Shown here: in pieces, positions 12,424 to 30,082 of the stretch | How positions within the stretch are numbered: position 1 is the stretch's first letter | How the letters are laid out: each line of letters begins with the position of its first letter | Source: an uncultured Nitrososphaerota archaeon | GTDB lineage: Archaea > Korarchaeota > Korarchaeia > Korarchaeales > Korarchaeaceae | Direction: 5' to 3' | Assembly: GCA_964480775.1 (NCBI GenBank) | Contig: CAYZRF010000009.1 | Location: forward strand, 1 to 32,000 | DNA length: 32,000 nt | The notes under the pieces: generated by a model | Told to the model about the DNA's origin: nothing | Database searches by the model: none | The model's input: only the letters and a program-made list of their open reading frames with translations | Translations under genes and position numbers: made by a program

Positions 12424-14184
12424 TTAAATGATATCCCACTCTTTCAGGGTGTTGCTGAAGTGTTTTAGACCACGTTCAAAATACTCTTCTTCAAGGATAC
12501 CATGAGGTGTGGGAACCTCCAAGATCCTTCTTGGAGCCTTTAGTTCTGTTGGATCGAACCCCATTTGAATCTTAAGGGAATATCTCTGTTTGTATATGTC
12601 TCTTCCAAGTCTATGGAGTTCTTCAGGAGGAACTGGTATGCCTAAGGGGTCTAGTGCTTCCGACACCGTCTCGACATCGTATATGCCTCTCGCAAACAGA
12701 CAAATTACTAGGCTGTTGAGAACCATTCTCCAACTCTCCTCCTTGATCAATTTTTCGACTAGCTCTTCTGGAGGTGGAAGCTCACTGATTTTTTGATCAA
12801 GGGAGTATCCAGCATTGTCAAGATGACTATGCCTGCCTCCGACAAGAAAGCCGAGGTAAGCTGCGGGTCCTGTGTGATATCCGGGCATTTCATTCCCACC
12901 GAAGAAAAGTGCAAATTCCTCTCCTCCAAAACGTTTAGATGCATTCCTAACTCCTAAAGCCAACTCTCTATAGAACTCGTTTGGCTGTTCTACGACCATT
13001 TTTACGGCCTTAATATATGACTCATAGTTGCCCCATTTTAGTCTAAGGAGAGTTTTTCTCTCGGAAATCAGCCCCCTTTCAAGGGCTTCTGTAGCCCAAG
13101 CAAGGCAAACACCAGTGCTTATGGCGTCTAATCCAACTGACTCGACAAAATGCAGAAGCTTCAAGAAGTCCTCTCTATTTCCTATGCCTAACATGCTGCC
13201 CAGGGCGTATGCCAGCTCATAGTCATACGAGATGAATACAGTCTTGTAGAAGAAGGGTTCATGTGGGTAGGGTTCCCTTAACGCTGCAAGATGAATGCAC
13301 GCAACTGGGCATCCTGAACAAGCAATTCTTCTTCCTAAAACCTTTGAAGCCATCTCTTCTCCGCTTATGTTCTCAGCCTGCTCAAATCTGCCTGATTTAA
13401 GGTTCATAGTTGGTAAGGCACCAAGCTCATTTAACGGCAAGACATTCATCGTGGTTCCTAGTTCGTGGTACTTTTTCATCAACCCAGATCTAACGGCTTT
13501 CTCGAAGATCTTATCGTAAACTTTCCTGTAAGCAACCTTATCTTCTACCTTTAAGGCCTTCCTTCCCGAGATAACGATGGCCTTTAGTTTTTTAGAACCA
13601 AACACGGCTCCCAAGCCTAGTCTTCCGAAATGTCTGAAAGATTCTACCATTACTGATGCGTACCTAACCAGCTTTTCTCCTGCGGGACCTATCCTAAGAA
13701 TGCTTCTGTAACCCGCACTTGGCTCCCTTTCAGCAATCACTCTTCCAACTGTAAAACTGCTTGTCATTCCCCACAATGCACTTGCGTCCCTGAAGTGAAC
13801 CCTGTCCTCGTGAATTGCTAAGTATATGGGAGTTTCGCTAGCCCCTCTTATTACAATAGCCATGTAGCCTGCAAGCTTGATCGAAACGCTACTCCTTCCA
13901 CCCGCATACGATTCGCCTAAGTTCCCAGTAAGAGGACTTTTGAAGAGGGCAACAGTCTTGGATCCAAGAGGATACGCTGCATTGAAGGGGCCTACTGCGA
14001 GTATTATGGAATTCTCTGGACTCAAAGGATCGACTGACGTCATGTTCTCTTCTTTCAGTAGTTGAATTCCTAAACCGATCCCTCCAAGCCATTCCTCTAC
14101 TAAGTCATCTCTCTCTTCGACCCAGCTCGTTCTTCTGTTTAGATCTATGTACAGAACTTTTGAGAAAGGCTTCGGTTCGTACAT
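12424..14184 (-). CDS. aor: Tungsten/molybdopterin aldehyde:ferredoxin oxidoreductase family protein (AOR family)
   Basis: 586 aa. The AOR N-terminal domain reads ILAVGPFNAAYPLGSKTVALFKSPLTGNLGESYAGGR. The cluster/pterin region is RIACSGCPVACIH. The start codon abuts the upstream stop (TGAATG) and is preceded by GGAGGTGA. Confidence 0.9.
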   Translation of the reverse strand: MYEPKPFSKVLYIDLNRRTSWVEERDDLVEEWLGGIGLGIQLLKEENMTSVDPLSPENSIILAVGPFNAAYPLGSKTVALFKSPLTGNLGESYAGGRSSVSIKLAGYMAIVIRGASETPIYLAIHEDRVHFRDASALWGMTSSFTVGRVIAEREPSAGYRSILRIGPAGEKLVRYASVMVESFRHFGRLGLGAVFGSKKLKAIVISGRKALKVEDKVAYRKVYDKIFEKAVRSGLMKKYHELGTTMNVLPLNELGALPTMNLKSGRFEQAENISGEEMASKVLGRRIACSGCPVACIHLAALREPYPHEPFFYKTVFISYDYELAYALGSMLGIGNREDFLKLLHFVESVGLDAISTGVCLAWATEALERGLISERKTLLRLKWGNYESYIKAVKMVVEQPNEFYRELALGVRNASKRFGGEEFALFFGGNEMPGYHTGPAAYLGFLVGGRHSHLDNAGYSLDQKISELPPPEELVEKLIKEESWRMVLNSLVICLFARGIYDVETVSEALDPLGIPVPPEELHRLGRDIYKQRYSLKIQMGFDPTELKAPRRILEVPTPHGILEEEYFERGLKHFSNTLKEWDII

Positions 14185-14619
14185 TCATCTCACCTCCTCA
14201 AGAGCTATCACATTGTAAGGGCAGTAGTTCGCGCAATAGCCACAGTACACGCAGATTATGGGCTTGTTTACCTCTTCATCCCAGAAGATTGCTCCAAAGG
14301 GACATGCTTCAACACAATAACCGCAAGCTATGCATTTTTCGGGCTTAAGGATGACGCCTCCCCCTTTTCTAGGCACGAGAGCATCTTCAGGACATACTTT
14401 TGCACATGGAGGCTCTGAGCAGGCTCTGCAAACCACTACGATAAAGCCTTTCTCCATGCCTCCGGCACTTTTAACGTGTATCGCTGACTTTCCATAACCA
14501 ACTTCAGCGAATCTTCTAGTGCAGGCAAGCATACATGAAGCGCAGCCTACGCATAAATCAGAATCTAGAACTGAGAGGCGTTTCGTCAAATATATCCCAA
14601 GTTTGATGTAAATCCTCAC
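14185..14619 (-). CDS. Polyferredoxin subunit with four [4Fe-4S]-type cysteine motifs (AorA-like electron-transfer subunit)
   Basis: 144 aa with 16 Cys arranged as CVGCASCMLAC, CRACSEPPCAKVCP, CIACGYCVEACP and CVYCGYCANYCP. It is translationally coupled to aor. GTG start; an alternative TTG lies 11 codons downstream. Confidence 0.85.
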   Translation of the reverse strand: MRIYIKLGIYLTKRLSVLDSDLCVGCASCMLACTRRFAEVGYGKSAIHVKSAGGMEKGFIVVVCRACSEPPCAKVCPEDALVPRKGGGVILKPEKCIACGYCVEACPFGAIFWDEEVNKPIICVYCGYCANYCPYNVIALEEVR

Positions 14620-15578: not shown

Positions 15579-16553
15579 CTAGAAAGACCTCGCTGCTTTC
15601 ATAAACGCGTGTATATTCTCCAGAGGTGCAAAATAGGGGACATCGCATCCTGTGCTTACTATTAAGTTTCTGAAATCAGACATTCGTTTCAACATGTCTC
15701 CAACTTCCGTCTCTACCACGCCTTGTGGTCTTGTAGCCAACTTCATAGGAGAGTAATTTCCGAACAGAATTACAGCTTCAGGAACTTTTTCGGCAGCAAC
15801 TCTAAGATCTATATTGTCATCAAAGCTCAGAATGTGCGCTCCTGTCTCTACCATATCTAAAAGCAGGTGATTTGCCCTGCCACATATGTGTAGAGCCCAA
15901 GTGGGCCCTACTTTCTCGATTATCCTCGAAATGTAGGGCTTGGAGAACCTTCTGAAGTCTTCATTTGAGATGGAACTTGACATGGGTTCTGCCAAGACCA
16001 AAAGGTCTGTGATGGGAGCTAGTTCCCTTGCATAGCTCAGAATAACATCTGTTGAAAAGGACATGATTTCATCCAAGAGATCGGGTTTTTTCCTAACCAT
16101 TCTCATCAATCTACCGAATCCAACAAGCTGGCCAGCAAGGGTAAAAGGTCCTGACACGTAGAACCCGACAAACGCGTTTCTTCTAAGTTTTTGCATTAGT
16201 TCAGCTGTTCTAATCATGAGAGGGAGCCTTCCGCTAGTTTTCGGATTGGGAACCTCTAATCCCTCAAGATCGGCGCTTGACTCTAGCTTCAAGTGCTCGA
16301 CCACAGTAGGGGCGCTGTTTTCCTTCATGGAAACTTTTACGCCAACTGATTCGGCTTCTACAGTTAGGTCCATGAGTGGAAATACTATATCAAGACCGAA
16401 TTCCTCAAAAGAAGCTTTCATAAGCTTCATATGGAGCTCTGGCTCTCCAAGACATTCGTTTGCCTTTCCATTTATTAACTTAAGGCTTGGATAAGCTACC
16501 AGCGGTGCTACTAACAACTTCTCGCCCGATAGGACCCGATCTACTATATCCAT
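15579..16553 (-). CDS. UroD-fold methylcobamide:thiol methyltransferase (MT2; MtaA/MtbA-like)
   Basis: 324 aa, uroporphyrinogen-decarboxylase-family fold pattern. The zinc/thiolate-activating triad is present: H-I-C at 15882..15890 (H222, C224) and C303 in STGCDVP (15645..15647). AGGAGGAGG lies 4 nt upstream of the ATG. The gene is 20 nt downstream of the MT1 gene. Confidence 0.8.
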   Translation of the reverse strand: MDIVDRVLSGEKLLVAPLVAYPSLKLINGKANECLGEPELHMKLMKASFEEFGLDIVFPLMDLTVEAESVGVKVSMKENSAPTVVEHLKLESSADLEGLEVPNPKTSGRLPLMIRTAELMQKLRRNAFVGFYVSGPFTLAGQLVGFGRLMRMVRKKPDLLDEIMSFSTDVILSYARELAPITDLLVLAEPMSSSISNEDFRRFSKPYISRIIEKVGPTWALHICGRANHLLLDMVETGAHILSFDDNIDLRVAAEKVPEAVILFGNYSPMKLATRPQGVVETEVGDMLKRMSDFRNLIVSTGCDVPYFAPLENIHAFMKAARSF

Positions 16554-16573: not shown

Positions 16574-17953
16574 TTAAGGTTTACTTACGCCTAATTCCTC
16601 TAATTCCTTCCAAACCCTTTCATATATGGCGAGCCAGTCTGGAACTGGTTTAAGAGTTACCAGGTTAGTGAGCTCCTTAAAACTGCGTCCCTTTGGAGGA
16701 TCCCTTAACCTTCCCTCGTACTTTGGTAAGAGCTCCTTAACGACATAGTTAACATCGGAGAGCTTCATTCCGGCAGATGCTTTCAATATTTCTGCGCAGA
16801 ACTTATTCTCAAGCCCACTACAATAATTAGGATATTTACATGCAGCTGGTCTTGTTCCGATCACGATAGCAGCCCCAGATACTGCTTCGGCGAGGGAGAT
16901 GCAAGCTGTCTCATACAAGATCATATCAGTTCCTGGACCAGCCACCTGACTGGTTATTCCTAGAACCATTGAGCGGCTGTTTCTAGATTTGGCTTGATTA
17001 GCTACGCTCGTAGCCCAAAGAGCTTCCCTTCCGCAGTTTCCAAAGTATCTTCCATCTAATATTGTGCTCTCTATAACAGTTGGTTGCATTGATGCTGCCT
17101 GTAGGATGTGGGCTGCAATTGCGCCTAAGGCTGCCCCTTCAGGAGGGCCGAAATATCCACCTATAGTTGTCATGTGCCCTGCTTCAATTGAAGTACCTGT
17201 AATCAGGGCAACGGCTACTCTGTGCAATATCCTATGTGGTAGGGTGATGGGCTCAGGTATTAGACATATGGCAAGCGTGCACTCTGGCTCAAATCCCCCT
17301 GGTAGGAAACCTCCGAAGAAGCCATACTCTGTAGGTGCTCCTTCAACCCCAAACACAGGCATTCCAGGCCTTCCAGCCCTATGAAGGGCCTCTTTAACAA
17401 GCTTTGCCTCGTAAAATCCCGCCAGGGTCTCATAGGGCGTCCTTGATCTAACCTCCCTTCCGTGAAGCCTGTCTAGACAGGCACCTAGAAGCATGTCCAC
17501 AACCCTGTATTGGGCGATTGACTGACAGATTGGGACATAAAGCTCCTCTGAGACAGAGAGCCCTAGAGCAGACATGGCTGCTATAGGAGGACTCGGGTCC
17601 TCGGGCACCCTGACCTTGATAGTGATCCTATCCTTTCCCTTTCCCAATGAGACCTCGGATACTGCATTTTTTAGCGCTTCCTCTATCTCCTCTTCGGTGA
17701 ACTTGACAATTCTCTCAGTCTCAGGGCAGAACATTCCCAGCTCAACCGCAAGAGAGAAACCTGCCTCCCAGAACTCATCAGCTAAACTGAGATCCATGTT
17801 TATGGGATTGTTTGGATCGAACGTCCTCTCTAACCCGTGATCCTTTAATACCCTCATGGTTGTTCTGGGAACTAACTTGTAGTCCCACTCCTTTCTTGAG
17901 ATGGGAGGTCCTATTAGGGTCCTGTCCATAACCTCTAACAGCTTCGATACCAT
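16574..17953 (-). CDS. MtmB-family (monomethylamine methyltransferase-like) MT1 protein lacking a pyrrolysine codon
   Basis: 459 aa from ATG 17953, with GGAGGTGA at 17962..17969. The ORF track starts at GTG 17971 and gives 465 aa. The protein is colinear end to end with Methanosarcina MtmB as I recall it: KEWDYKL, CPETERIVKFTEEEIEEAL, HRAGRPGMPVFG, GGYFGPPEG, VAGPGTDMILYE, SGLENKF and KGRSFKELTNLVTLKP. There is no in-frame TAG. Confidence 0.8.
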   Translation of the reverse strand: MVSKLLEVMDRTLIGPPISRKEWDYKLVPRTTMRVLKDHGLERTFDPNNPINMDLSLADEFWEAGFSLAVELGMFCPETERIVKFTEEEIEEALKNAVSEVSLGKGKDRITIKVRVPEDPSPPIAAMSALGLSVSEELYVPICQSIAQYRVVDMLLGACLDRLHGREVRSRTPYETLAGFYEAKLVKEALHRAGRPGMPVFGVEGAPTEYGFFGGFLPGGFEPECTLAICLIPEPITLPHRILHRVAVALITGTSIEAGHMTTIGGYFGPPEGAALGAIAAHILQAASMQPTVIESTILDGRYFGNCGREALWATSVANQAKSRNSRSMVLGITSQVAGPGTDMILYETACISLAEAVSGAAIVIGTRPAACKYPNYCSGLENKFCAEILKASAGMKLSDVNYVVKELLPKYEGRLRDPPKGRSFKELTNLVTLKPVPDWLAIYERVWKELEELGVSKP

Positions 17954-17961
17954 TGAATTGG

Positions 17962-18651
17962 TCACCTCCACTCCCCAACTAGAACGGGCTTCTCAACCTC
18001 CTTTCCTCTTTCCTTCAATAGGTTACAGAGCTTTACAGCACCTTCCGCGTCCTTAGCCCATCCATCTGCCCCTATCTCCTTAGCCCACTCTGGATAGACT
18101 GCTGCTCCACCGACTATGACGTAATATTTGTCTCTGATTCCCATGTCCACTAGTCTCTGAATTACATCCCTCATGTAAAACATGGAAGGGCTCAATAGAC
18201 ACGAAATCGCAATGAAATCAGCCTCCGCCCTCTCAGCTTCCTCCACAAACTTCCTAGGTTCAACGTCAGATCCAAGGTCGAATACCTCATAGCCATTTGC
18301 CCTAAGCAAGGATGCTACTATGTTCTTCCCAATGTCGTGGATATCCCCGTAAATCGTCCCTATGACAACTTTTCCTTTCCTGAATTCCTGAGCTCTTTCA
18401 CTTAACTTTGGAATTATGATGTTTAAGGCTGCATAAGCTGTATCTGCTGCTAATACCAAATCAGGTAGGAATAGCTCTAACTTCTCGTATTTCTCCCCAA
18501 CTGTATCAAGGCCCTTCTTTAATCCCTCATTTATTATCTCTAGCGGGTCTATTCCTGCTTCAAGCGCTCTTTTAGTTGCTTCTTTTATGCCTTCTTCATC
18601 ACCATTAACAACCAAGTCTTTTAATCGATCTAGCAGTTCCTGCTTTCCCAT
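17962..18651 (-). CDS. Cobalamin-binding corrinoid protein (MtmC/MtbC/MtaC-like)
   Basis: 229 aa. It has an N-terminal helical cap domain and a C-terminal B12-binding Rossmann domain. The lower-ligand motif is D-I-H-D-I-G-K-N (18328..18345), followed by LG and GGA segments. Confidence 0.9.
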   Translation of the reverse strand: MGKQELLDRLKDLVVNGDEEGIKEATKRALEAGIDPLEIINEGLKKGLDTVGEKYEKLELFLPDLVLAADTAYAALNIIIPKLSERAQEFRKGKVVIGTIYGDIHDIGKNIVASLLRANGYEVFDLGSDVEPRKFVEEAERAEADFIAISCLLSPSMFYMRDVIQRLVDMGIRDKYYVIVGGAAVYPEWAKEIGADGWAKDAEGAVKLCNLLKERGKEVEKPVLVGEWR

Positions 18652-18737: not shown

Positions 18738-19409
18738 TTAGATAGTTGGAAGGTAAATGGACCCTATCAGATAGATTAATGTGGGTATTGCGACAATAAA
18801 AGTCGCTTTATAGTAAGATAGATTGTGTTCTTCCTTAACAGCTAGGACAGAGAGAGCCAGAAACCAGATTAACATTACCAAACCGAAGATCCTGTTTATG
18901 GCCATGCCTACCTCGGTTGGCTTAGTAGCCATCAAGTTCTTTAAGAACTCAGCTTTTTCAGCAGAACTCATACTTTCAATAGGGATATCAGGAATTTTTG
19001 GAGAATACAGAGCCATAGCTAGCAAATTTGATGCTGAAGAGAAAATTTGGGGGGTGCGACACCAACCAATAAGTTCTAAAAGCTTTTCAAATGTACCTGA
19101 TCCCTTTATAGCCTTAGCAATTAGGTGAAAAACTCCAGAGATTACGAACCAAGCTGTAAATGAGAAAATAAGGGTTCCATACACAAGTCGGATTCCAGAA
19201 AAGCCCTCTAATCCAACTTCGCTTGGATCAATTTGCATTATATCGAGAATTTTCATAACAGAGATGAAGGTTGCCAGCCCAGTCAGCAGACCTTGAGATA
19301 GAATTATGACAAATGGCCCCAGGAGAGAGAGTTTCCCTTCCTTCATTTCCTTCAAAGTTGGTACAGGTCTTAGGATGATGCCCTTGATTTTCACCAAGAT
19401 CCTCAGCAT
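18738..19409 (-). CDS. Yip1-like integral membrane protein (5 TM)
   Basis: 223 aa. A short soluble N-terminus (ILRPVPTLKEM) is followed by five hydrophobic segments, the layout of Yip1-domain proteins. The family assignment is tentative. Confidence 0.5.
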   Translation of the reverse strand: MLRILVKIKGIILRPVPTLKEMKEGKLSLLGPFVIILSQGLLTGLATFISVMKILDIMQIDPSEVGLEGFSGIRLVYGTLIFSFTAWFVISGVFHLIAKAIKGSGTFEKLLELIGWCRTPQIFSSASNLLAMALYSPKIPDIPIESMSSAEKAEFLKNLMATKPTEVGMAINRIFGLVMLIWFLALSVLAVKEEHNLSYYKATFIVAIPTLIYLIGSIYLPTI

Positions 19410-19510: not shown

Positions 19511-21514
19511 TTACGTTTGGTAAGGAGATTTTGAGGGTTTTTTGTTGTATGTTCTAAGTTCGATTGCAGTTGGTATTGAAAAGACAAAAGCTACCAAAGC
19601 CAGCCATCCAGAGATGTTTGATTCAACAATCTCTGCATTGAGAATTTTTTCCCACGAAATCTCATTTATTTGGCCGTCTTTCCCTATTTTGATCGTTGCT
19701 ACATTCTCATAAACTCTCTCTTGCCAAGTTCCCAAATGATACAACCAGATTTTGAGGGAAATTCCTCCCTCTGTTATCCCGCTGTGACGCATAACCTCCT
19801 CTAAACTCTCTACATAAATGTTTGAAACTATCTGATCAGATTCCACCTCCGATTCTCCTGAGGAAATTTCAACCACGTCTACGCTCAAAACCCAACGGAC
19901 TTTGATCTCATGGGCTTCATCTCGCTGTTTAACCCAAATCTCAATGCTTGAAGGCCTTCCAACTACCCTCAAATTTGAGGGCTCAGTCCTATGACAGCCG
20001 CAGGAATATTGAGGAAACTCCACGAAAGTTCCGTCCGGCCATCTAACAACCACTTGAGCTTTCCAGCTTGGAATTGAGAGAGAAAACCAAAGTATGGACA
20101 TACAAGTTAAGGCAAAGAGAATGATCGCTAGATAACGCTTGCCTTTTGACCATATAGCTGCTGATACTAAGACAAATGGGAAGCAAAAGAAGGCCTTTAG
20201 AGGATCCGATCTCGCCAAACAAAGCGAGGCTATTGCTCCCATCGAAAATATTAAGGTGAGACGGGAATTGAATGACCTAACTTTTTCTAAATCCAAGAAC
20301 GGAATAATTACTCCTGCCGCTCCTAGAGAAGCTCTAATCAGCACAGGAGTGTCGTAACTAGTTGCTAAGAAATATGTCCCCAGAGACAATAGCAAGATGC
20401 CTGATATCAGGTCAATAATAGTTACCTTTGTTCCTATCCATCTCTTCATTGTTCTTGACTTTAATCCTGCCCAAACGCTAAGTAATATGGCAATTAAAGG
20501 CGAGATGAATACAGAGTTGTAAAGAATGAGTGCTAGAAAGGCTCTAGTCTTATTAATGCCGACTAAGAATGAGGAAGCAAGAAGATAAGGTCCCATGGAG
20601 CAAGGAAGTAATGTAAAGCTAACCAAGGCTCCTAAGGTAATTGCCTCAACGGAGCTTGCAGAACCCTCAAAGACCTCAAATCTTCTAATAGTGATTTTTC
20701 TCAGAGGCTTAGGCAAAGGAGCCCTATGAATCCCTGATTGAAAGTTTCTCAACTCGAAAACGCCTAGAGCTATGAGGGCAGCACTGAAGAGGGGGATGAG
20801 GGTCCTCAGAAGGGAGGCAATGGTCAGGAGCCCCAGACCCAGAAGGAAGTAACATAGATAAACTGTGGCGATAAAGGCAACACCTGACCTAAGCGCTCTT
20901 CTCCTTCCACCAGAAGCCATAGAGAGGACCAAAAGGGTAGCAAATACCACGAAAGTGCAGGGGTTCACTGAATCCGCAGCCGCTAAAATAAAGAACTCTT
21001 TAAGCTCAAATTGAATTGAAGATGGCTTTGATTTGAAAATTTCCTCTAATCTCTTAACTTCTTCTCCTTCTAGATATCTTAGCTCATGTTCTTTGTAAGA
21101 AACTAACACAGATCCAGGACTTATCCTTCCTTCTAGTGAACTTAGGAATTCTTGGTCATGATAACCAGCCAAGATTGCCACAAGACTGTCCTGAGAAAAG
21201 ACTACAACTAAAGGAGCTGCTCGAACCCCTTGAGGAAAGGCAAGTTCATAGATCTCATCTACTATGGCGGCTATTTCAGCTCCTTCTGGACCAGATAACT
21301 CATAGAAAACAATTGATTCATTTCCGAATAGTTCTGATATGGTTTTAAGCTCCGACCCGCACTCAGAGCATCCAATTGTTCCGTATACAACAAAAGTCAA
21401 ATTAGGCTGTGCATAAATGGAAGCCAGTTGTGTTGAAAAAACCATGGCTATTAGCAAAGCAACTAAGATCTTCATCAAGATTAAGCTTGCGATCCTTCTT
21501 TTTTTGCCTTTCAA
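19511..21514 (-). CDS. Multidomain membrane thiol:disulfide oxidoreductase: thioredoxin-like CxxC domain + DsbD/CcdA transmembrane core + extra TM segments and a C-terminal extracytoplasmic domain
   Basis: 667 aa. The signal/anchor is followed by a CxxC motif (YGTIGCSECG). The two DsbD-core half-motifs are ADSVNPCTFVVF and FTLLPCSMGPY. About 3 further TM segments follow, then a soluble region of about 160 aa, then a final TM. TTG start; an alternative ATG at 21475 gives MKILVALL. Confidence 0.75.
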   Translation of the reverse strand: MKGKKRRIASLILMKILVALLIAMVFSTQLASIYAQPNLTFVVYGTIGCSECGSELKTISELFGNESIVFYELSGPEGAEIAAIVDEIYELAFPQGVRAAPLVVVFSQDSLVAILAGYHDQEFLSSLEGRISPGSVLVSYKEHELRYLEGEEVKRLEEIFKSKPSSIQFELKEFFILAAADSVNPCTFVVFATLLVLSMASGGRRRALRSGVAFIATVYLCYFLLGLGLLTIASLLRTLIPLFSAALIALGVFELRNFQSGIHRAPLPKPLRKITIRRFEVFEGSASSVEAITLGALVSFTLLPCSMGPYLLASSFLVGINKTRAFLALILYNSVFISPLIAILLSVWAGLKSRTMKRWIGTKVTIIDLISGILLLSLGTYFLATSYDTPVLIRASLGAAGVIIPFLDLEKVRSFNSRLTLIFSMGAIASLCLARSDPLKAFFCFPFVLVSAAIWSKGKRYLAIILFALTCMSILWFSLSIPSWKAQVVVRWPDGTFVEFPQYSCGCHRTEPSNLRVVGRPSSIEIWVKQRDEAHEIKVRWVLSVDVVEISSGESEVESDQIVSNIYVESLEEVMRHSGITEGGISLKIWLYHLGTWQERVYENVATIKIGKDGQINEISWEKILNAEIVESNISGWLALVAFVFSIPTAIELRTYNKKPSKSPYQT

Positions 21515-21637: not shown

Positions 21638-22456
21638 ATGTCTAGATTTGAAAGCTTTTACAAGCTATTTAACACAAAAAAGCCAATCATAGGAATGGTC
21701 CATCTGCCGCCTCTCCCAGGCTCACCCCGATACAACGGGGATATGGAAGGTTTGATCAAAAGGGCCGTCTCAGATGCTAGGGCTCTTGAGGATGGGGGGG
21801 TAAATGGACTGATTGTGGAGAACTATGGCGATAAGCCTTTTAGAAGAGATAAAGTCGGACCCGAAACAGTTTCTGCAATGACTTTAGTTCTGAAGAGCGT
21901 GTTAGAGGCAACATCTCTGCCAGTCGGAGTTAATGTGCTTAGAAGCGATTGTGTCTCTGCTCTAGCTATAGCTTCAGTAACTGGAGCAAAGTTCATCAGG
22001 TGTAATGTTTTTACCGATACCTTGGTCACGGATCAAGGCATTATTCAGCCCTGTGCATGGGAAGTCTTGAACTTAAGGGCGTTTCTCAAATCTAAGGTCA
22101 TGGTGTTCGCTGATGTTCTTAGCAAACATGCTAGGCCCTTAGTCCACCTGACAATAGAGGAATCAGCAAGAGCTGCCGCCTATAGAGGAATGGCCGACGC
22201 CATAATAGTAACTGGAACGGAGACCGGGGTTAGTCCGGATCCTGAGAGGGTTAAGAGGATTAAGGAGGCTGTTTCGGATGTTCCGCTCCTAATTGGAAGT
22301 GGTCTCAACCCAGATAACGCTGTAACACTGTTAAAACATGCAGATGGGGCTATCGTTGGCACATATTTCAAGGAAAAAGGTTTTGTAGAAAATAAAGTCG
22401 ACACGGAGAGGGTAAGAACCCTCATAAAAACCATAAAGATGCTCGATCATAGGTGA
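21638..22456 (+). CDS. BtpA/SgcQ-family TIM-barrel protein
   Basis: 272 aa. The family-typical N-terminus is KPIIGMVHLPPLPGSPRY. GLIVENYGD and the C-terminal GADGAIVGT-like segment (HADGAIVGTYFK) are also present. Confidence 0.8.
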   Translation: MSRFESFYKLFNTKKPIIGMVHLPPLPGSPRYNGDMEGLIKRAVSDARALEDGGVNGLIVENYGDKPFRRDKVGPETVSAMTLVLKSVLEATSLPVGVNVLRSDCVSALAIASVTGAKFIRCNVFTDTLVTDQGIIQPCAWEVLNLRAFLKSKVMVFADVLSKHARPLVHLTIEESARAAAYRGMADAIIVTGTETGVSPDPERVKRIKEAVSDVPLLIGSGLNPDNAVTLLKHADGAIVGTYFKEKGFVENKVDTERVRTLIKTIKMLDHR

Positions 22457-22460
22457 GTGA

Positions 22461-23816
22461 ATGGATCTCCTGAATGGAGACTGGTGGAAAGCTGGCGCTG
22501 GCCCTGGAGGTTTGTGTCTAAATGGTCTAAAGGCCATCATTACTATGGAACCCTCAAATCCGATTATTTGGAATGGTCACATTTGTGTCGAGGATGGATT
22601 GATAAAGAGCATAGGTGTTGGTAAGGGACCAAGGGCAGAGGTAGAAATAGAGACTCATGGGAAGGTAGCTATTCCTGGCATGATAGATCTCCACTCCCAT
22701 TCTACTCAATCTTTTCTAAGGGGTGTATTCGATGAGATATGCCTCATGGAGTGGTTAAACGAAACCGATGTATCCTATTCGAGAGCAAAAAGAGAATTGC
22801 TTGAAATATCATCTACGATCTCTTTTCTCGAAAGATTGAAGGGAGGAGTCACCACAGTAGTGGATATGGAGCCCTTTCCCGAGATAATTGCTCGAGCTTC
22901 TGAAAAGATTGGTTTGAGGACCGAAATCTCCGTTCTGATGGCTGATACCCCAGAACTTCCTAGTCAAGAGGTTTCATCGCTAGAACAGGAGTTGAAAAAG
23001 GCTAAAAGTGCTATACAAAAGTTTCAGAGAAATCAAAAGTTATGGGTATCTCTAGCTCCCGTAGGTTTTCCTGCAGCCTCAAATGAACTTTTTAAGAGAT
23101 CTGCAGAACTCGCAAAGGAAAAAGGACTAAGGCTCCATACTCATGTTGCTGAGAGCAGAATAAACGCAAACCTATGCAAGAGAAGAAATAGGAGGAGCGA
23201 AATTGAGCTTCTAGAGGATCTTGGATTCTTAGGTCCAAAAACTCAACTTGCCCATGCTATCTGGATAAGCGAGACGGATATCGAGACTCTTTCAAAATAT
23301 AGAACTGCAGTCGTTCATTGCCCTTCAAGCAACCTGAAGCTCGCAGCAGGCGTGTCGAAAGTACCTGAGATGATAAAAATGGGAGTTAAAGTTGGACTTG
23401 GGCTTGATGGAGCAGCTAGCAACTCCAGCCAAGATATGTTCCAAGAGATGAGAATCGCATCAACATTACATAAAGGGGTTAAAGGAAATCCAAAAGCCGT
23501 GAAAGCCGAAGAAGCACTTAATATGACGACTGTACAAGCTGCAAAAATACTTAGACTTGAAAAAACGTTAGGAAAGATATCTCCTGGCTATTGGGCTGAT
23601 TTTTCTCTAATTGATGTGTCACAACCCAGGTACTTACCAATAGAGGCCATAAGGTCGCACATAGTTTATTCAGCCCAAGCTTCCGATGTTTTCGGTGTAA
23701 TAGTTGGGGGAGAAGTTCTTGTTTGGGAAAGAACGCACACCAGTTTTGACGAAACTTCCCTCTTAAAGAGAGCAGGTGAACTTTTCTCAGAGTTCCTGAA
23801 CGGTGTGCTCCTTTGA
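22461..23816 (+). CDS. Metal-dependent amidohydrolase of the MtaD/SsnA/chlorohydrolase (nucleobase/nucleoside deaminase-like) group
   Basis: 451 aa. Metal ligands: IPGMIDLHSHS (HxH), RLHTHVAES, LAHAIW and GLDGAASN. It starts 4 nt after the btpA stop. Confidence 0.85.
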   Translation: MDLLNGDWWKAGAGPGGLCLNGLKAIITMEPSNPIIWNGHICVEDGLIKSIGVGKGPRAEVEIETHGKVAIPGMIDLHSHSTQSFLRGVFDEICLMEWLNETDVSYSRAKRELLEISSTISFLERLKGGVTTVVDMEPFPEIIARASEKIGLRTEISVLMADTPELPSQEVSSLEQELKKAKSAIQKFQRNQKLWVSLAPVGFPAASNELFKRSAELAKEKGLRLHTHVAESRINANLCKRRNRRSEIELLEDLGFLGPKTQLAHAIWISETDIETLSKYRTAVVHCPSSNLKLAAGVSKVPEMIKMGVKVGLGLDGAASNSSQDMFQEMRIASTLHKGVKGNPKAVKAEEALNMTTVQAAKILRLEKTLGKISPGYWADFSLIDVSQPRYLPIEAIRSHIVYSAQASDVFGVIVGGEVLVWERTHTSFDETSLLKRAGELFSEFLNGVLL

Positions 23817-24925
23817 TCTCAAGGAAAAAGTTTACGTCACTGTACATTTCGACTTTTCTATTGACAACAGGCGTGGGAGCAACTATTCCAGCCCTAGCTC
23901 AAAAGGTCTACCTAATATCTTCATCAGACGAACTTGTCTCGCTAGTGATTGGAACTTGGGGTCTCTCTTACACAATATTGAGCGCTCTTTCTGGTTATTT
24001 AATTAACTTTTTTGGAAGAAAAGGGGTTTCTTTCCTTGGTTTGCTAGGTGCGTCTGTTTCTGGTATTATAATGGAGTTATCTAACTCTGTATCTGCGCTT
24101 GCCTCATCAAGATTCCTTACAGGGGCTTCTGAAGCTCTTGTCCTTAATTCTTTCATCACTATAACCTCTTTTGAATCCTTAGAAAAGAGAGAAGGCTGTC
24201 TTGGTCTACTGTATGCTTCTATGGGTCTTGGATTGTTCTCGGGACCTTTTTTCTACTCTTACTTCTTGGGATCAGATCCCAAAAAAGGCTTTTTCTTGTT
24301 GATTCTTCTTCCTCTTATGTCAATACTCCTTCTTCCATCATATCAAGAGGGATTTTCAATGGATAGGTCGTCTCACCCTAACTTAAGAAAAGTAGCTATC
24401 CCTTTAACTGTGTCTCTACTAATAGGGGCATTGGAAGGATATTTTCAAGGGTCGGGAGTGAGCCTTGTTAGAGCTTGGGGGCATGATCCCTCGGATTTTG
24501 GAAAGATTTTGTCCCTCTATTTTGCGTTTAGCATTGTCGTCCAAGGCACGATGCCCTTCTTGACCAAAGTTTTTAGGGCGGATAGCTGGGCAGTTAGCTT
24601 TTCTATATGGACAATCTTCACATCGAGCCTGCTCATCGAGTTAAGGTCCAAAAAATTTCCTTTCTTATTCTCTGGCTTATTTGGGGCTTCTATTGCCGTT
24701 TGTAGCGTAGCTTTAACTTCATTATTATCTGAATTAACTACAGAGAAGGAAAGAGCATTTGCTATAGGGATGTCGAGTTCAACTTATTCACTGGGCTACT
24801 TTATTTCTCCTATTTTCGTCTTTATATTCAAAAATCAGGTTTTTGGAGTGTTCTTTATGTCTATACTACTTTTTCTCTTAGCAGCAATCATTAGATTTCC
24901 GTTAAGACCTTCTAACGAGATTTAA
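23813..24925 (+). CDS. MFS-type transporter
   Basis: 370 aa with 10-12 hydrophobic segments. The TTG start overlaps the amidohydrolase stop (TTGA). A motif-A-like loop is GYLINFFGRKG. Confidence 0.7.
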   Translation: MISRKKFTSLYISTFLLTTGVGATIPALAQKVYLISSSDELVSLVIGTWGLSYTILSALSGYLINFFGRKGVSFLGLLGASVSGIIMELSNSVSALASSRFLTGASEALVLNSFITITSFESLEKREGCLGLLYASMGLGLFSGPFFYSYFLGSDPKKGFFLLILLPLMSILLLPSYQEGFSMDRSSHPNLRKVAIPLTVSLLIGALEGYFQGSGVSLVRAWGHDPSDFGKILSLYFAFSIVVQGTMPFLTKVFRADSWAVSFSIWTIFTSSLLIELRSKKFPFLFSGLFGASIAVCSVALTSLLSELTTEKERAFAIGMSSSTYSLGYFISPIFVFIFKNQVFGVFFMSILLFLLAAIIRFPLRPSNEI

Positions 24926-25736
24926 GAAATTTCCGAATTACTTCTGCGGCCTCGTCAACCGTCAAGAACTTTTTTGGGAATTTCCCAACCTTGAGGTTTA
25001 GCTCCACAACCTGTGGAGGTCTTATGAAAGCCTTTCGCAAAGTCTCATAGTCATATAAGACTTCTTCTACCGATCCATCCTTCAAGATCCTACCATCTGC
25101 CATCAAAATAACTCTTTTAGCAGTTCTGGCAACGAATCTCATGTCATGAGTTATTACTACAACAGTTTTACCTTCTTCATTGAGTCTTATGCATAGATCG
25201 CTTAGAACCTTTCTTCCAACATGATCTTGACCTGTTGTTGGTTCGTCTAAAACGAACACCTCAGGATTCATCGACAATATTGAGGCAACCGTTAGAAGCT
25301 TCCTCTTTCCGAAATCTAAATCATAAGGATGCATTTCTTCAGTTCCTTCCAATCCAACAACCTTCAAAGCCTCTTTTACTCTTCTATCCACCTCTTCCTC
25401 ACTTAAGTCCAAGTTTCTAGGACCATATGCAACTTCTTCGTAAACAGTACTCATAAATATCTGGTGAGCTGGGTTTTGGAACACATATCCGACCTTCGCT
25501 ACTATTTTATGGGTTGGGGTCTCTTTAGTGTCCATTCCTGCAACAACAACTCTACCCTTCGTAGGTTTTAAGAGTCCATTGAAATGTTTCGCCAAAGTTG
25601 TCTTTCCTCCACCATTCTGGCCTATCAAAGCAAGGATCTCTCCAGGATGGATCTCTAGGTTAATCTCTTTTAACGCAACGACTTCTGGACTGTATTCGAA
25701 CCAAACGTCCTCAACCCTAATTATTGGTTCAGTCAT
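24912..25736 (-). CDS. ECF transporter ATPase subunit (EcfA2-like) with a degenerate ABC signature
   Basis: 274 aa. Walker A is GQNGGGKTT, the Q-loop VFQNP, Walker B VFVLDEPTTGQD and the H-loop ITHDM. The position of LSGGQ reads LDFGK (25305..25319). The start overlaps the upstream stop (TAATG). Confidence 0.9.
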   Translation of the reverse strand: MTEPIIRVEDVWFEYSPEVVALKEINLEIHPGEILALIGQNGGGKTTLAKHFNGLLKPTKGRVVVAGMDTKETPTHKIVAKVGYVFQNPAHQIFMSTVYEEVAYGPRNLDLSEEEVDRRVKEALKVVGLEGTEEMHPYDLDFGKRKLLTVASILSMNPEVFVLDEPTTGQDHVGRKVLSDLCIRLNEEGKTVVVITHDMRFVARTAKRVILMADGRILKDGSVEEVLYDYETLRKAFIRPPQVVELNLKVGKFPKKFLTVDEAAEVIRKFLKSR

Positions 25737-26590
25737 TAACTTAACGCCTCCTTATAGAGATCTATTGCTTCATCTAGCGTTATTGGGTAATCTTCTCTTG
25801 ATACCCCCAACTCATTTCTGAGAAGGTGCGTGAGTTCAGTTACCGAAGGCGGATCTACCCCTATCTCCTTAAGTTTCTCTACGCTTGACAAAACTCTCTT
25901 TCCCTCACCTTTTAATACCATTTCCCCATCATATAGCGCTATAATCTCATCTGCAAATGTTGCAAGTTCCTCTATCTCATGCTCAGCGACTACTATCGTT
26001 TGACCTCCAGCAGCAAGTTCCTTAACAGTTTCGAAAACCTCAAACTTTCCTATGGGATCTAGTTGGGCAGTTGGTTCATCAAGTACCAGTATCTCGGGTC
26101 TTACTGCTAAAACGGTTGCTATGGCTAGCCTTTGTTGCTGTCCTCCAGAGAGTTCGTAAGGTGATCTTCCCTCCAGACCTTTTAATCCAACCGTTTCTAT
26201 AGCTTCTTTGACCCTTTTATCAATCTCTTCTTTAGGAAATCCGAGCATGGCAAGACCAAAAGCAACTTCTTCCTCTAATGTAGTTGCAACTCCCGATAGC
26301 TGATCTAGTGGATCCTGAAATACGATTCCTACCTTCGTCGAGAGCTCCGCTATGGTGTGTTTAAGGGTATCCATTCCAGCGACGATAACTTTGCCAGACA
26401 TTCTGCCGCCAAAGAACTGAGGCACAATTCCGTTTAGAGAAAGGCATAAAGTTGTCTTTCCAGCTCCGTTTGGACCTATTATCCCTAAAACTCCTCCTCT
26501 CTTAACTTTGAAGGAGATGTGCTTAAGCACATTCTCCCTCGTAGGGTAGGAATAAGTGACATCTTCAACAATGACCGGATACTCTTCCAA
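25736..26590 (-). CDS. ECF transporter ATPase subunit (EcfA1-like)
   Basis: 284 aa. Walker A is GPNGAGKTT, the Q-loop VFQDP, the signature is a canonical LSGGQQQRL, Walker B is ILVLDEPTAQLD and the H-loop is AEHE. Confidence 0.9.
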   Translation of the reverse strand: MEEYPVIVEDVTYSYPTRENVLKHISFKVKRGGVLGIIGPNGAGKTTLCLSLNGIVPQFFGGRMSGKVIVAGMDTLKHTIAELSTKVGIVFQDPLDQLSGVATTLEEEVAFGLAMLGFPKEEIDKRVKEAIETVGLKGLEGRSPYELSGGQQQRLAIATVLAVRPEILVLDEPTAQLDPIGKFEVFETVKELAAGGQTIVVAEHEIEELATFADEIIALYDGEMVLKGEGKRVLSSVEKLKEIGVDPPSVTELTHLLRNELGVSREDYPITLDEAIDLYKEALS

Positions 26591-26613
26591 TCTAATCGCC
26601 TCTTCCCATAAAA

Positions 26614-27564
26614 CTATCTCCCATAAACAACTCTGGAAACTAGGAGATCAATGAAGGCCTTACCATCAAGGTCAACGCAGACATTGGCATTCGCAGGTCT
26701 CTTAAAGGATTCCGGAAGCCATTCTCTAAGATCTGCCAGAGTTTCGCCGCGCGTTAAAGTACCGCAGACTTCAACATCTACATGAAGCCTCTTAAACTTG
26801 AAGATTTCTGGCTTTATCATATAGCTTAGGGCCATTGGATCGTGCATAGGAACTGGTTCTATAAGATAGACGAATCTTCTCAGCATCTTTTGTATTAACT
26901 CTCCCGTCTTAGTTCCTGCCTTGCCTATCTCTTCATAGAGGGATTTGCTTATCCCCGCATCTGGCCTCATGGTAACATCAAGACCGAAGGCGTAGATCTC
27001 TGCTCCTGAATTAAAGACTATTTTCGCTGCCAAAGGATCTGTAGCAATGTTGAACTCGGCTCTTGGACTTTCATTTCCATATCCCCAAGGAGTTGTTGCA
27101 TAGGCTCCACCCATTATAACGATAGAAGACAGTTTATTGGCAATATTGGGTTCAAGAAGCAATGCCATTGCAACATTGCTAAGAGGTCCAGTTGCTACGA
27201 TACTTATCTCCTTTGGACCACTGTCCATAACTTTCTCTCTTATGAAGTCAACAGCATGGCCCTTCGCAGGTTTCATACGGGGTTCTGGGAGATTAACGTC
27301 TCCAAGTCCATCTTGGCCGTGAACAAATTCAGCTGTCCTAAGTTCTCCAAACATAGGTCCTTTCATACCAGCAAATACTGGGACTTTCTCTAATCCCATA
27401 AATTCAAGCATTTTGAGGGCATTTTTCGTGGTTAATTCAAGAGGAACATTTCCTCCTACCGTTGTGATTCCTAAAATCTCCAATTCTGGAGATCTGCAAG
27501 CAAGCATTATAGCGATAGCATCGTCTATTCCAGGATCCATGTCCAGAATTACTTTCTTACCCAT
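26614..27564 (-). CDS. Nucleoside hydrolase (inosine-uridine preferring, IUNH family)
   Basis: 316 aa. The N-terminal Ca-binding fingerprint is ILDMDPGIDDAIAI (DxDxxxDD). ATGPLSN and the overall length are typical of the family. Confidence 0.9.
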   Translation of the reverse strand: MGKKVILDMDPGIDDAIAIMLACRSPELEILGITTVGGNVPLELTTKNALKMLEFMGLEKVPVFAGMKGPMFGELRTAEFVHGQDGLGDVNLPEPRMKPAKGHAVDFIREKVMDSGPKEISIVATGPLSNVAMALLLEPNIANKLSSIVIMGGAYATTPWGYGNESPRAEFNIATDPLAAKIVFNSGAEIYAFGLDVTMRPDAGISKSLYEEIGKAGTKTGELIQKMLRRFVYLIEPVPMHDPMALSYMIKPEIFKFKRLHVDVEVCGTLTRGETLADLREWLPESFKRPANANVCVDLDGKAFIDLLVSRVVYGR

Positions 27565-27566
27565 AT

Positions 27567-28415
27567 TTATCCCGCTACCACATATTTGAGATGAACAATG
27601 GGTGAATTCCCGTATTTCAAATAGATATACACAACTAAAATGGTCAAAGCTGCCATTCCAGCCATGAAAACGAAATCTTCCATTTGAAAAGTTATCTCCT
27701 TCAAAGGAGTCTTTTTAGTGGGGGCGGTAAAACCTCTCGACTCTAAAGTTATTGCTCTCGTCTGAACTCTATTCAATGAAGACAGAGTTAAAGGAACTAC
27801 CAAAGCTATGTAATTCTTGAACTTCTTTACAAGACCCACATCGGTCTTAAGACCTCTAGACACTTGAGCCTGAAAGATTGTTCCAACCTCATCTGCTAAA
27901 ATTGGAATGAGTTGGACTGCTGCAGTAAACATGTAAGCCAGCTTATACGACATTTTCATTTTCGTTATGGTAGAAGTTATCTCCGCCAGTGGAGTAGTCA
28001 AGTAGAAAAGCATCGCTGAACCTATGCAAACTCCCACCCTTGCAGGCCAGGTTATTGCATACGCTAATCCTTCATAATAAAAGGAAAATTCTCTGCCAAA
28101 TAACTTAATCGTAAAGAGAACTGTTTCATTACCCTGAAAACCTGCTGAAGGTGACAAGATAATTATCCCAACTAATATCCACGGAATCACTATTACGGCT
28201 TCAGTTAGATAGATCTGTTTGTGTATCTTTGCAATTCTTGCGCACATAAGTAGTGCGACAAGCAGCACTGAGACAAGTACATAATCATAGAAAAGGTAGG
28301 CTATTATAGATATCCACCAGAAAAAGATGAATTTTGTCCTTCCATCGAGCCGATGAAAAAAGGTGTTGCCTGCTGTATAAGCTCTCTTCAATAATAAGCT
28401 TCCTACAGCACTCAA
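27567..28415 (-). CDS. ECF transporter transmembrane T component (EcfT/CbiQ family)
   Basis: 282 aa, polytopic. The two coupling-helix x-R-G motifs are FQAQVSRGL and TLESRGF. Its stop lies 2 nt before the nucleoside hydrolase ATG. Confidence 0.85.
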   Translation of the reverse strand: MSAVGSLLLKRAYTAGNTFFHRLDGRTKFIFFWWISIIAYLFYDYVLVSVLLVALLMCARIAKIHKQIYLTEAVIVIPWILVGIIILSPSAGFQGNETVLFTIKLFGREFSFYYEGLAYAITWPARVGVCIGSAMLFYLTTPLAEITSTITKMKMSYKLAYMFTAAVQLIPILADEVGTIFQAQVSRGLKTDVGLVKKFKNYIALVVPLTLSSLNRVQTRAITLESRGFTAPTKKTPLKEITFQMEDFVFMAGMAALTILVVYIYLKYGNSPIVHLKYVVAG

Positions 28416-28458
28416 CTACATCACCAAAAAAGAGGAAAGGGGGAATTTATATAAACAA

Positions 28459-29049
28459 TTATCTCTTTGCCAAGACGAAGCGCTTAGGAACCCTGCTTGC
28501 GACGATAAGAGCTAAGATCCATGAGATTGATTTGTCTATTAGCTCAGTCGCCACATTCTGAAGATAGTATGCCAGAAGCTGATTCCCGGTGGCACTCAAA
28601 ACACCAAAGTAAACTATTGCTGTTGGTTTCGCTAGAGGACCGGCACCAAACGTGTAGAGCCCTATTGCTGTACATTGGATTGAGTAAACAAAACCTAACC
28701 ATAGGAAGGCAGGAATGAGCTTCAATGGTTTCTTTAGGTCATCCCAACCGAGTTTCATGAACATAAAGGACCATATGGCTATTGCTATGTTACATGTCCC
28801 CCAGATCCAAGCTGGTAGACCCCACACAGTCATAGCCATAATAAGGTTGTAAAGGAAACCTCCTATTGCTCCAACCCACACACCCGAGATCAGTGTTCCC
28901 AACATCGTAGCCCAGGTGTCTCCCCAAATGGGTAGTTTGAGAGTCTCTACTATTACCCCTGTCACGTAGTTCAGTCCTGCAATTACTGGAATCATTACTA
29001 GAGCCATTATCTTTGCCCCAGTAGGCACAACTTCCCTACTTTCTGACAT
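28459..29049 (-). CDS. ECF transporter substrate-capture S component, substrate unassigned
   Basis: 196 aa with about 6 TM. LKLPIWGDTWATMLGTLISGVWVGAIGGFLYNLI matches the l-P-l-y-l-D-t-i-G-T...G...G...N pattern common to ECF S components. It lies immediately upstream of ecfT. Confidence 0.65.
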   Translation of the reverse strand: MSESREVVPTGAKIMALVMIPVIAGLNYVTGVIVETLKLPIWGDTWATMLGTLISGVWVGAIGGFLYNLIMAMTVWGLPAWIWGTCNIAIAIWSFMFMKLGWDDLKKPLKLIPAFLWLGFVYSIQCTAIGLYTFGAGPLAKPTAIVYFGVLSATGNQLLAYYLQNVATELIDKSISWILALIVASRVPKRFVLAKR

Positions 29050-29095
29050 ACCGCATCATCTTCCTCGTTTCGTTAGTTGGCTAACCTGTCGCCTG

Positions 29096-29107
29096 ATATA
29101 ATATTAA
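29096..29107 (-). promoter_or_regulatory. TATA-like box upstream of the ECF S-component gene
   Basis: The minus strand reads ttaatattatat about 50 nt upstream of ATG 29049. It is preceded by the run tttcttttttgg (oligo-T core at 29126..29135), which could terminate or attenuate transcription coming from udp. Confidence 0.25.
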
Positions 29108-29153
29108 GATTTCCCCTTTTTCACCAAAAAAGAAATGTAGGTGTGGTAAAAGG

Positions 29154-30044: not shown

Positions 30045-30082
30045 CCCTCAGTTTCAAAGCATGATGGTGCGTCTTCGCATTT

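Follow-up and report, generated by a model that had tools for sequence, protein, structure and literature searches.

The analyzed window, a stretch of 32,000 nucleotides from contig CAYZRF010000009.1 of an uncultured korarchaeotal archaeon (assembly GCA_964480775.1), contains a gene of the MtmB family that lacks the pyrrolysine (Pyl) codon of Pyl-dependent monomethylamine (MMA) methyltransferases. The gene is located on the minus strand (16574..17953) and encodes, from ATG 17953, a protein of 459 amino acids (aa) that is predicted to be a substrate:corrinoid methyltransferase (MT1). It is the second gene of a trio in the order corrinoid protein, MtmB-like protein, MtaA-like methyltransferase. 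In the Pfam profile search, the MtmB-like protein is a full-length match to PF05369 (268.9 bits at a cut-off of 25, E 1e-79), residues 6-455 covering positions 4-449 of the 450 in the profile, and there were no matches to NCBIfam profiles. Sequence and predicted fold both assign the protein to the MtmB family.

The uninterrupted open reading frame spans 16574-17971 on the minus strand and offers three candidate starts, GTG 17971, GTG 17965 and ATG 17953. ATG 17953 is considered the best start, and the residue numbering used here the most likely one, because the ATG is preceded by a complete Shine-Dalgarno sequence, GGAGGTGA (17962..17969, minus strand), at a spacing of 8 nt. GTG 17965 overlaps the TGA stop codon of the upstream gene; initiation there or at GTG 17971 would renumber Phe201, the residue of main concern here, to 205 or 207, respectively. 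The upstream gene (17962..18651, minus strand) encodes the cognate corrinoid protein with B12-binding_2 and B12-binding domains (Pfam) and a D-I-H-D-I-G motif. Its NCBIfam matches, of the pyl_corrinoid/MtgC/MtbC-like type, all score under the curated cut-offs. The TGA stop of this gene falls within the Shine-Dalgarno sequence that serves the MtmB-like gene, an overlap that suggests translational coupling of the two. In nearly all of the 84 related loci (L001-L084) included in the comparison of gene contexts, the MtmB-like gene is immediately preceded by a corrinoid gene.

The third gene (15579..16553, minus strand) follows 20 nt downstream of the MtmB-like gene and encodes a methyltransferase of the MtaA/CmuA family with a URO-D fold (Pfam URO-D), predicted to be a methylcorrinoid:thiol methyltransferase (MT2) acting on a coenzyme M-like acceptor. 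It remains under all curated cut-offs (TIGR01463, 149.6 vs. 235.4 bits; MtaA equivalog, 119.8 vs. 400; MtbA, 83.4 vs. 600). Its best PDB match is MtaA (4AY7, 7e-29), and the H-x-C ... C pattern of MtaA, whose residues we take to be zinc ligands, is present, with lHiCG and tGCd opposite lHiCG and pGCg of 4AY7. The Mto methoxydotrophy system was rejected as an explanation of the operon, since MtoA is MtrH-like and not a URO-D protein and MtoB is related to MtvB.

On the minus strand, the codons GCT GGA AGG CCT GGA ATG CCT GTG TTT GGG GTT GAA GGA GCA CCT ACA GAG encode A-G-R-P-G-M-P-V-F-G-V-E-G-A-P-T-E, in which TTT at 17353-17351 is the codon of Phe201. The motif shared by the clade around the Pyl column, G-R-P-G-M-P-V-F-G-V-E-G-A-P-T-E-Y-G, extends over residues 194-211 (17321..17374, minus strand). 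An earlier note on this DNA had assigned TTT at these positions to Phe as residue 201 from ATG 17953, which is borne out by the minus-strand reading and by the start with its Shine-Dalgarno sequence. A sequencing error or a hidden stop at Phe201 was considered but dismissed, since two bases separate TTT from TAG and eight clade sequences, mostly from other assemblies, have Phe here. An ENA contig of 116,855 bases carries a fully syntenic copy of the locus with 98% identity. The relatives of the query are proteins from Korarchaeota, Caldarchaeales, Hadarchaeota and Hecatella.

The sequence of M. barkeri MtmB1 in PDB entry 1L2Q reads AGRPGMGV-X-GPETS with X at residue 202, which confirms the motif around Pyl202 given in the earlier note. 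In a phmmer search against PDB, agrpgmPVFgvE is placed opposite agrpgmGVXgpE, X202 falling on F201 with no local gap (1L2Q, E 1.3e-54), and both residues share one column in four MAFFT alignments of differing composition. Public gene calls break Pyl-type genes in two at UAG; the N-terminal half (202 aa) ends in '...AGRPGMGL', and the C-terminal half (~244 aa) begins at the first Met, 7-24 columns past UAG. At a control Pyl-type locus (L085), mtmB is likewise present as halves of 201 and 244 aa, located beside pylS, pylC and pylD. In contrast, scans of the 32-kb window revealed no pyl or tRNA genes, nor any mcr gene. The in-frame UAG after GRPGM-x-[VL], the hallmark of Pyl-dependent MtmB, is absent from the query, which has TTT instead.

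The AlphaFold model of the MtmB-like protein (93 sequences) reaches a pLDDT of 97.2 and a pTM of 0.95 and places F201 within a short strand (200-202). Foldseek aligned the model with the MtmB structures 1NTH, 1TV2 and 1L2Q at a TM-score of 0.95 and a root mean square deviation of 1.4 Å over 453 columns, and with MttB and MtgB at a TM-score of only ~0.5. In MtmB, Pyl202 is anchored on a β-strand inside the TIM barrel, whereas the Pyl of MttB is located above the barrel and not on a strand (PMC9842639). A structure-based comparison with the MtmB crystal structure (1NTH), of the kind suggested earlier as a check, locates F201 of the model at the strand position of Pyl202. At the level of the predicted structure, Phe201 is thereby shown to correspond to Pyl202, with both residues on one and the same strand of the barrel. 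The gap-free alignment of Phe with Pyl, which had been claimed from the sequence motif, is reproduced by phmmer, by the four MAFFT alignments, by the split Pyl-type genes and by AlphaFold and Foldseek. The insertion of 2-3 residues that had been proposed to follow the site does not exist: F-G-V-E-G-A-P-T-E-Y-G pairs residue for residue with O-G-P-E-T-S-L-S-A-Q-G, and every alignment, phmmer as well as MAFFT, is free of gaps after the Pyl column. E204 of the query, the counterpart of E205 in MtmB1, is retained.

To characterize the surroundings of the site, 97 C-terminal fragments of Pyl-type MtmBs were compared with the 50 sequences of the query clade (52-98% identity). In the Pyl type, D226, H228, E229, S231, Q232, N234, E259, Q260, E273, H294, D296, G297, P298, H300, W303, N332, Q333, Y334 and Y335 are conserved in at least 95% of the sequences. 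All of these positions differ in the query clade. At those places the clade has conserved residues of its own, namely L231 (100%), P233 (98%), G259 (96%), H260 (92%), G273 (98%), S296 (94%), D300 (100%), Y303 (86%), N306 (98%), G332 (98%), T334 (94%), S335 (92%), R368 (100%) and C372 (96%). The query itself carries A228, G259, H260, I333 and S335, and the clade keeps G/A, G, I and S at the positions of E229, E259, Q333 and Y335. In MtmB1, E229, E259 and Q333 presumably contact the pyrroline ring, a point that is reportedly found in Hao et al. 2002/2004. Since the residues that are invariant in the Pyl type (E229, E259, Q333, Y335 etc.) are replaced by another clade-conserved set, the Pyl-imine chemistry appears to be lost and not merely substituted. 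With neither the UAG codon nor these residues, the query is not a Pyl-dependent monomethylamine methyltransferase. The statement in the earlier note that no imine adduct of the Pyl kind can form stands on Phe together with the loss of the invariant residues; the different activation chemistry that it drew from this would be a further step, for which MtqB offers a published precedent (PMC13044021).

The replacing residues form an alternative conserved pocket, which sits at the C-terminal ends of the barrel strands and comprises E204, E209, Y210, G259, H260, S296, T297, D300, Y303, N306, G332, T334, S335, Q336, R368, C372 and Y374. On the minus strand, the codons of G259-H260, which replace E259-Q260 of the Pyl type, are located at 17174..17179, and the codon of D300, in place of H300 and at the C-terminal end of strand 293-300, at 17054..17056. 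The stretch from R368 to C372 (16838..16852, minus strand) lies at the C-terminal end of strand 363-368 and replaces A368 and G372 of the Pyl type. Several of the exchanges from the Pyl type to the clade lead from large to small residues (E to G/A, E to G, N to G, Y to T and Y to S); with the long side chain of Pyl also gone, the cavity may be larger. From sequence and topology, we infer an enlarged pocket with the residue at the Pyl column, usually one that bears a ring, as its putative floor. H260, C372, D300 and E204 were weighed as candidate ligands of a zinc site like that of MtaB.

A survey of the Pyl column in homologs without Pyl, which had also been suggested, shows that Phe does occur there and that many other residues serve as well. 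Within the query clade, the column is occupied by His (32 sequences), Phe (8), Trp (7), Tyr (1), Cys (1) and Gln (1), with the rest of the pocket set constant; the His forms come mostly from Caldarchaeales/Terraquivivens and other metagenome-assembled genomes (MAGs) of Nitrososphaeria. Across 261 homologs, H, L, I, G, Y, V, F, A, W, S, M, T, C, D and more residues are found. Phe as the characteristic replacement of Pyl was therefore rejected; as the column varies in clade and family, Phe is one of many solutions. H, F, W or Y is carried by 48 of the 50 clade members, and a ring-bearing residue seems to be required at this column within the query clade. Gln at the Pyl column of two homologs (P0314/P0315) was discarded as a probable gene-calling artefact in which TAG is read as Gln, because the same 90% cluster also holds the 202-aa and 244-aa halves.

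The variation extends to paralogs within single genomes. One Hadarchaeota MAG (CAYUMT01) encodes at least 21 paralogs, with F, N, H, L, S, I, Q, T, Y, V, E or A at the Pyl column (among its loci are L013, L015, L016, L018-L024, L028, L030, L031 and L035), and Hecatella orcuttiae JdFR-11 has at least seven paralogs of the MtmB family (among its loci are L009, L017, L026, L029 and L038). Nearly all of these paralogs are without Pyl, and many adjoin a Bmp transporter or amidohydrolase of their own. Lys occurs at the column in P0318-P0320 and P0326 and in a full-length MtmB homolog of a Methanomassiliicoccaceae MAG (L086, WQXR01000002.1, 3122-4510) that is 47% identical to M. barkeri MtmB1. In the latter, Lys202 (AAG, one base from TAG) is located exactly at the Pyl column (GRPGMGI-K-GPDT), and a PylC-like gene and an ammonium transporter follow. 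A distant Pyl-free member with 34% identity and Gly at the Pyl column (L084, ENA ERZ27270735 k115_893799) has the gene order corrinoid protein, MtmB-like protein, amidohydrolase and 455-aa URO-D protein, adjoined by hydantoinase A and a gene of the MttB family.

The genomic context of the MtmB-like gene was compared across the 84 related loci, 47 of which are at least 12 kb long. A Bmp binding protein (PF02608) is encoded in 38/84 loci, an Amidohydro_1 gene in 36/84 and one or both in 57/84 (36/47 of the longer loci); these are raw counts that include many loci from a few paralog-rich genomes. In eight loci, fewer than 400 nt separate the amidohydrolase from the MtmB-like gene. The flanking transport set typically consists of a Bmp-family binding protein, two PF02653 permeases and a tandem ABC ATPase. 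The pattern is found in Caldarchaeales, Hecatella, Hadarchaeota, Clostridia, Peptococcaceae, Sporobacter, Spirochaetes and Chloroflexota, and the Pyl-type control locus has neither a Bmp transporter nor an amidohydrolase. The best PDB matches of the Bmp proteins are 7X0R ('Lbp'), the atrazine periplasmic binding protein 6PI5 and the Bmp lipoprotein 3S99; those of the amidohydrolases are the MTA/SAH deaminase 4F0R, 8-oxoguanine deaminase, TM0936, triazine hydrolases and guanine deaminase. The NCBIfam matches of both groups all lie under the curated cut-offs. Ten loci from Terraquivivens, Caldarchaeales and Nitrososphaeria MAGs (L002-L008, L010, L011, L014) share another layout, in which a RACo activator on the opposite strand is followed by the corrinoid gene, an MtmB-like gene with His at the Pyl column and the MtaB methanol methyltransferase gene; a Bmp ABC transporter comes next in seven of them (L002-L006, L011, L014). 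This layout combines two MT1-type genes with one corrinoid gene and has no MT2 nearby.

Among the genes of the window, no Bmp gene was found. A deaminase-type amidohydrolase, a candidate functional partner by the family-wide association, is encoded on the plus strand (22461..23816) as part of a divergent BtpA-amidohydrolase-MFS cluster (21638-24925). It is followed by a nucleoside-utilization cluster (24912-31021) that comprises an ECF-type transporter (two ABC ATPases and CbiQ/EcfT), a RihC/UriH-like nucleoside hydrolase, a uridine-phosphorylase-like gene and a ribokinase; another gene resembling uridine phosphorylase is located at 4599-5348. Just upstream of the trio, a Yip1-domain membrane protein (Pfam; 18738..19409, minus strand) is encoded, a linkage observed only in the query's lineage. 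A multi-pass membrane protein of 667 aa (19511-21514, minus strand) has no Pfam or NCBIfam match and is conserved in the 98%-identical strain; by eye, a CxxC (GCSECG) near its N-terminus and an NPC in a membrane stretch recall thiol-disulfide transporters of the DsbD/CcdA type. An aldehyde:ferredoxin oxidoreductase with a 4Fe-4S ferredoxin (12424-14619) is found a few kb from the MtmB-like gene, and a gene of the same oxidoreductase family is similarly near in three unrelated loci (L078, L038, L012).

Taken from sequence and model, the query is likely a Pyl-independent MT1 of the MtmB family that works in a three-gene corrinoid methyl-transfer module of its korarchaeotal host. Its substrate is probably not methylamine. 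With the imine-forming side chain gone, monomethylamine would not be activated covalently, and as no covalent imine adduct would form, the methyl donor would have to be intrinsically activated or polarized by the pocket. The ring residue, Phe in the query and His, Trp or Tyr in its relatives, would form the floor of the enlarged pocket, which may hold an already activated donor, such as an onium-type N-methyl compound, or one that the pocket polarizes. Co(I) of the corrinoid protein would then take the methyl group off the donor, and the MtaA-like enzyme would hand it to a thiol acceptor. The context suggests that the source is an imported N-methylated N-heterocycle or a related amine and not free methylamine. 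Several points weigh against this interpretation. Which enzyme plays which role in the operon is not firmly established, because the URO-D neighbor scores under the curated MtaA/CmuA cut-off and because the MtaA/CmuA family also includes MT1 and bifunctional enzymes (PMC8630106). The methyl-coenzyme M reductase is missing from most marine hydrothermal Korarchaeia (PMC10667645), and the trace MMA activity of MtqB makes Pyl-free turnover of MMA conceivable (PMC13044021). The pocket floor and the enlarged pocket are, moreover, read from sequence and topology.

As to the substrate, it may tentatively be proposed, at a rather low probability, that the enzyme demethylates N-methylated purine-like heterocycles (nucleobases, nucleosides or cationic N-methyl aromatics) that are imported by Bmp, ECF or MFS transporters and processed by a deaminase-type amidohydrolase before or after demethylation, the ring residue stacking on the base. 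The recurrence of Bmp and amidohydrolase genes in Archaea and Bacteria, their resemblance to the binding proteins, purine/triazine deaminases and hydrolases named above and the lack of such neighbors at the Pyl-type control locus are in line with this proposal, as are the amidohydrolase-MFS and nucleoside clusters of the window, the predominance of H, F, W and Y at the Pyl column and a pocket rich in hydrogen-bonding residues. However, the argument is one of guilt by association, built on sub-cut-off matches; the window is without a Bmp transporter, its amidohydrolase gene lies on the opposite strand at a distance of 3.8 kb, and amidohydrolases may instead free methylamine from a precursor. 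A literature search found no paper that ties MtmB-family proteins to nucleobase metabolism, and the paper on the mlp gene cluster makes no mention of MtmB (PMC10418091). Extended to the whole Pyl-free branch (Korarchaeota, Caldarchaeales, Hecatella, Hadarchaeota, Clostridia, Chloroflexota and Spirochaetes), corrinoid-dependent demethylation of such heterocycles, with Bmp import, deaminase-type amidohydrolases and, in the query, Phe stacking on the base, is a speculative idea that we hold to be improbable as stated. Candidate substrates may be 7-methylguanine, 1- or 3-methyladenine and similar cationic N-methyl aromatics; alternatively, the branch may handle amines released from imported N-heterocycles.

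It is unlikely that the query is instead an MtqB-like quaternary-amine methyltransferase, in which a permanently charged substrate (tetramethylammonium, choline or another betaine) would take the place of the Pyl-methylamine adduct. MtqB is the only characterized Pyl-free MtmB homolog, and docking placed its substrate nitrogen within ~1 Å of the Pyl-ammonium adduct, in an environment of aromatic and sulfur residues (PMC13044021); the query pocket is likewise aromatic (F201, Y210, Y303, F304, Y374) and contains acidic residues. However, MtqB and its clade reportedly branch close to the Pyl-encoding MtmBs, whereas the query is just 27% identical to MtmB1 and has its relatives among the archaeal groups named above, and there is no betaine or choline transporter among the scanned genes of the window. 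That the protein still acts on monomethylamine without Pyl, perhaps supplied by the neighboring amidohydrolase, which would release methylamine from N-methylamino compounds, is very unlikely, even though public annotation names such proteins monomethylamine:corrinoid methyltransferases, E204 is kept and COG0402-type amidohydrolases can release alkylamines. All residues that are invariant around the Pyl site of true MMA enzymes are gone, and at least 21 paralogs in one genome, with varied residues at the Pyl column, point to many substrates rather than one. Small MMA activity has been found for MtqB (PMC13044021), but cultured Thermoproteota that use methylamines encode the Pyl machinery, e.g. 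Methanonezhaarchaeia (PMC12700198). It is likewise very unlikely that the MtmB-like protein is acceptor-side, unloading methyl-corrinoid onto an amine or heterocycle, or a non-catalytic partner, with the URO-D protein, or MtaB in relatives, as the true MT1. The loci in which one corrinoid gene is shared with MtaB and no MT2 is nearby would fit such a role, as would the MT1 and bifunctional members of the MtaA/CmuA family and the description of a Pyl-free protein of the MtmB superfamily in strain DCMF as 'a likely MTII' (PMC9768040). On the other hand, the characterized members MtmB and MtqB are MT1 enzymes, the URO-D protein of the window retains the H-x-C...C pattern aligned to MtaA, and the strong conservation at the barrel-strand ends argues for catalysis.

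As a putative Pyl-independent MT1, the query joins an already recognized group, the Pyl-free MtmB homologs. It shares with MtmB1 of M. barkeri (1NTH/1L2Q/1TV2) the full-length PF05369 domain, the protein length, the TIM-barrel fold, the GRPGM-x-[VL] strand before the key position, the equivalent of E205 and a corrinoid gene directly upstream. It differs in its low identity, in TTT (Phe) for UAG (Pyl) and in the absence of E229, E259, Q260, N332, Q333, Y334, Y335, H294, D296, H300 and W303. MtqB (ACT9XH_RS04775) of Methanococcoides methylutens Q3c, in 2026 the first Pyl-free MtmB homolog with a demonstrated function, demethylates tetramethylammonium and choline (PMC13044021). Like MtqB, the query is a Pyl-free MtmB-family protein with its own corrinoid protein and an MT2 of the MtaA/MtbA type, and in both the substrate is presumed to fill the space of the Pyl adduct. 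Going by the published description, the MtqB clade, which has an active-site signature of conserved Met, Cys and aromatic residues, belongs to Methanosarcinales and some bacteria, whereas the query clade comes from thermophilic and subsurface archaea and has Bmp transporters and amidohydrolases as neighbors. Given the 27% identity to MtmB1 and the reported branching of MtqB near the Pyl-type enzymes, orthology of the two looks unlikely. A parallel is found in the Pyl-free MttB superfamily (MtgB for glycine betaine, MtcB for carnitine, MtpB for proline betaine), a family of Pyl-dependent methylamine methyltransferases with the same corrinoid/MT2 logic, most members of which are without Pyl and use permanently charged methyl donors; it is, however, a separate family (PF06253), with a Foldseek TM-score of only ~0.5 to the query model. 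Ga0180325_111810 of 'Ca. Formimonas warabiya' DCMF is, like the query, an MtmB-family protein without Pyl for which a role other than with methylamine was proposed, and it shows the highest induction on dichloromethane (PMC9768040). Unlike the query, it is bacterial, and it is ~30% identical to other family members.

Several of the Pyl-free proteins (P0021, P0041, P0050, P0070, P0085, P0091 and JGI entries) carry the public names 'monomethylamine:corrinoid methyltransferase' or 'methylamine--corrinoid protein Co-methyltransferase', which are probably over-specific. Such annotations are routinely used to infer the use of methylamine or methylotrophic methanogenesis in uncultured archaea. For the query clade, this is not justified, because the gene has neither Pyl nor the residues that are invariant around it. 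The function of Pyl-free MtmB homologs has so far received a single answer, MtqB, in 2026. The conserved pocket, the three-gene module and the recurrent transporter and amidohydrolase context lead to concrete, testable candidate substrates. If demethylation of purine-like heterocycles were true, it would constitute an unrecognized anaerobic methylotrophic niche and would explain genomes with more than 20 paralogs.

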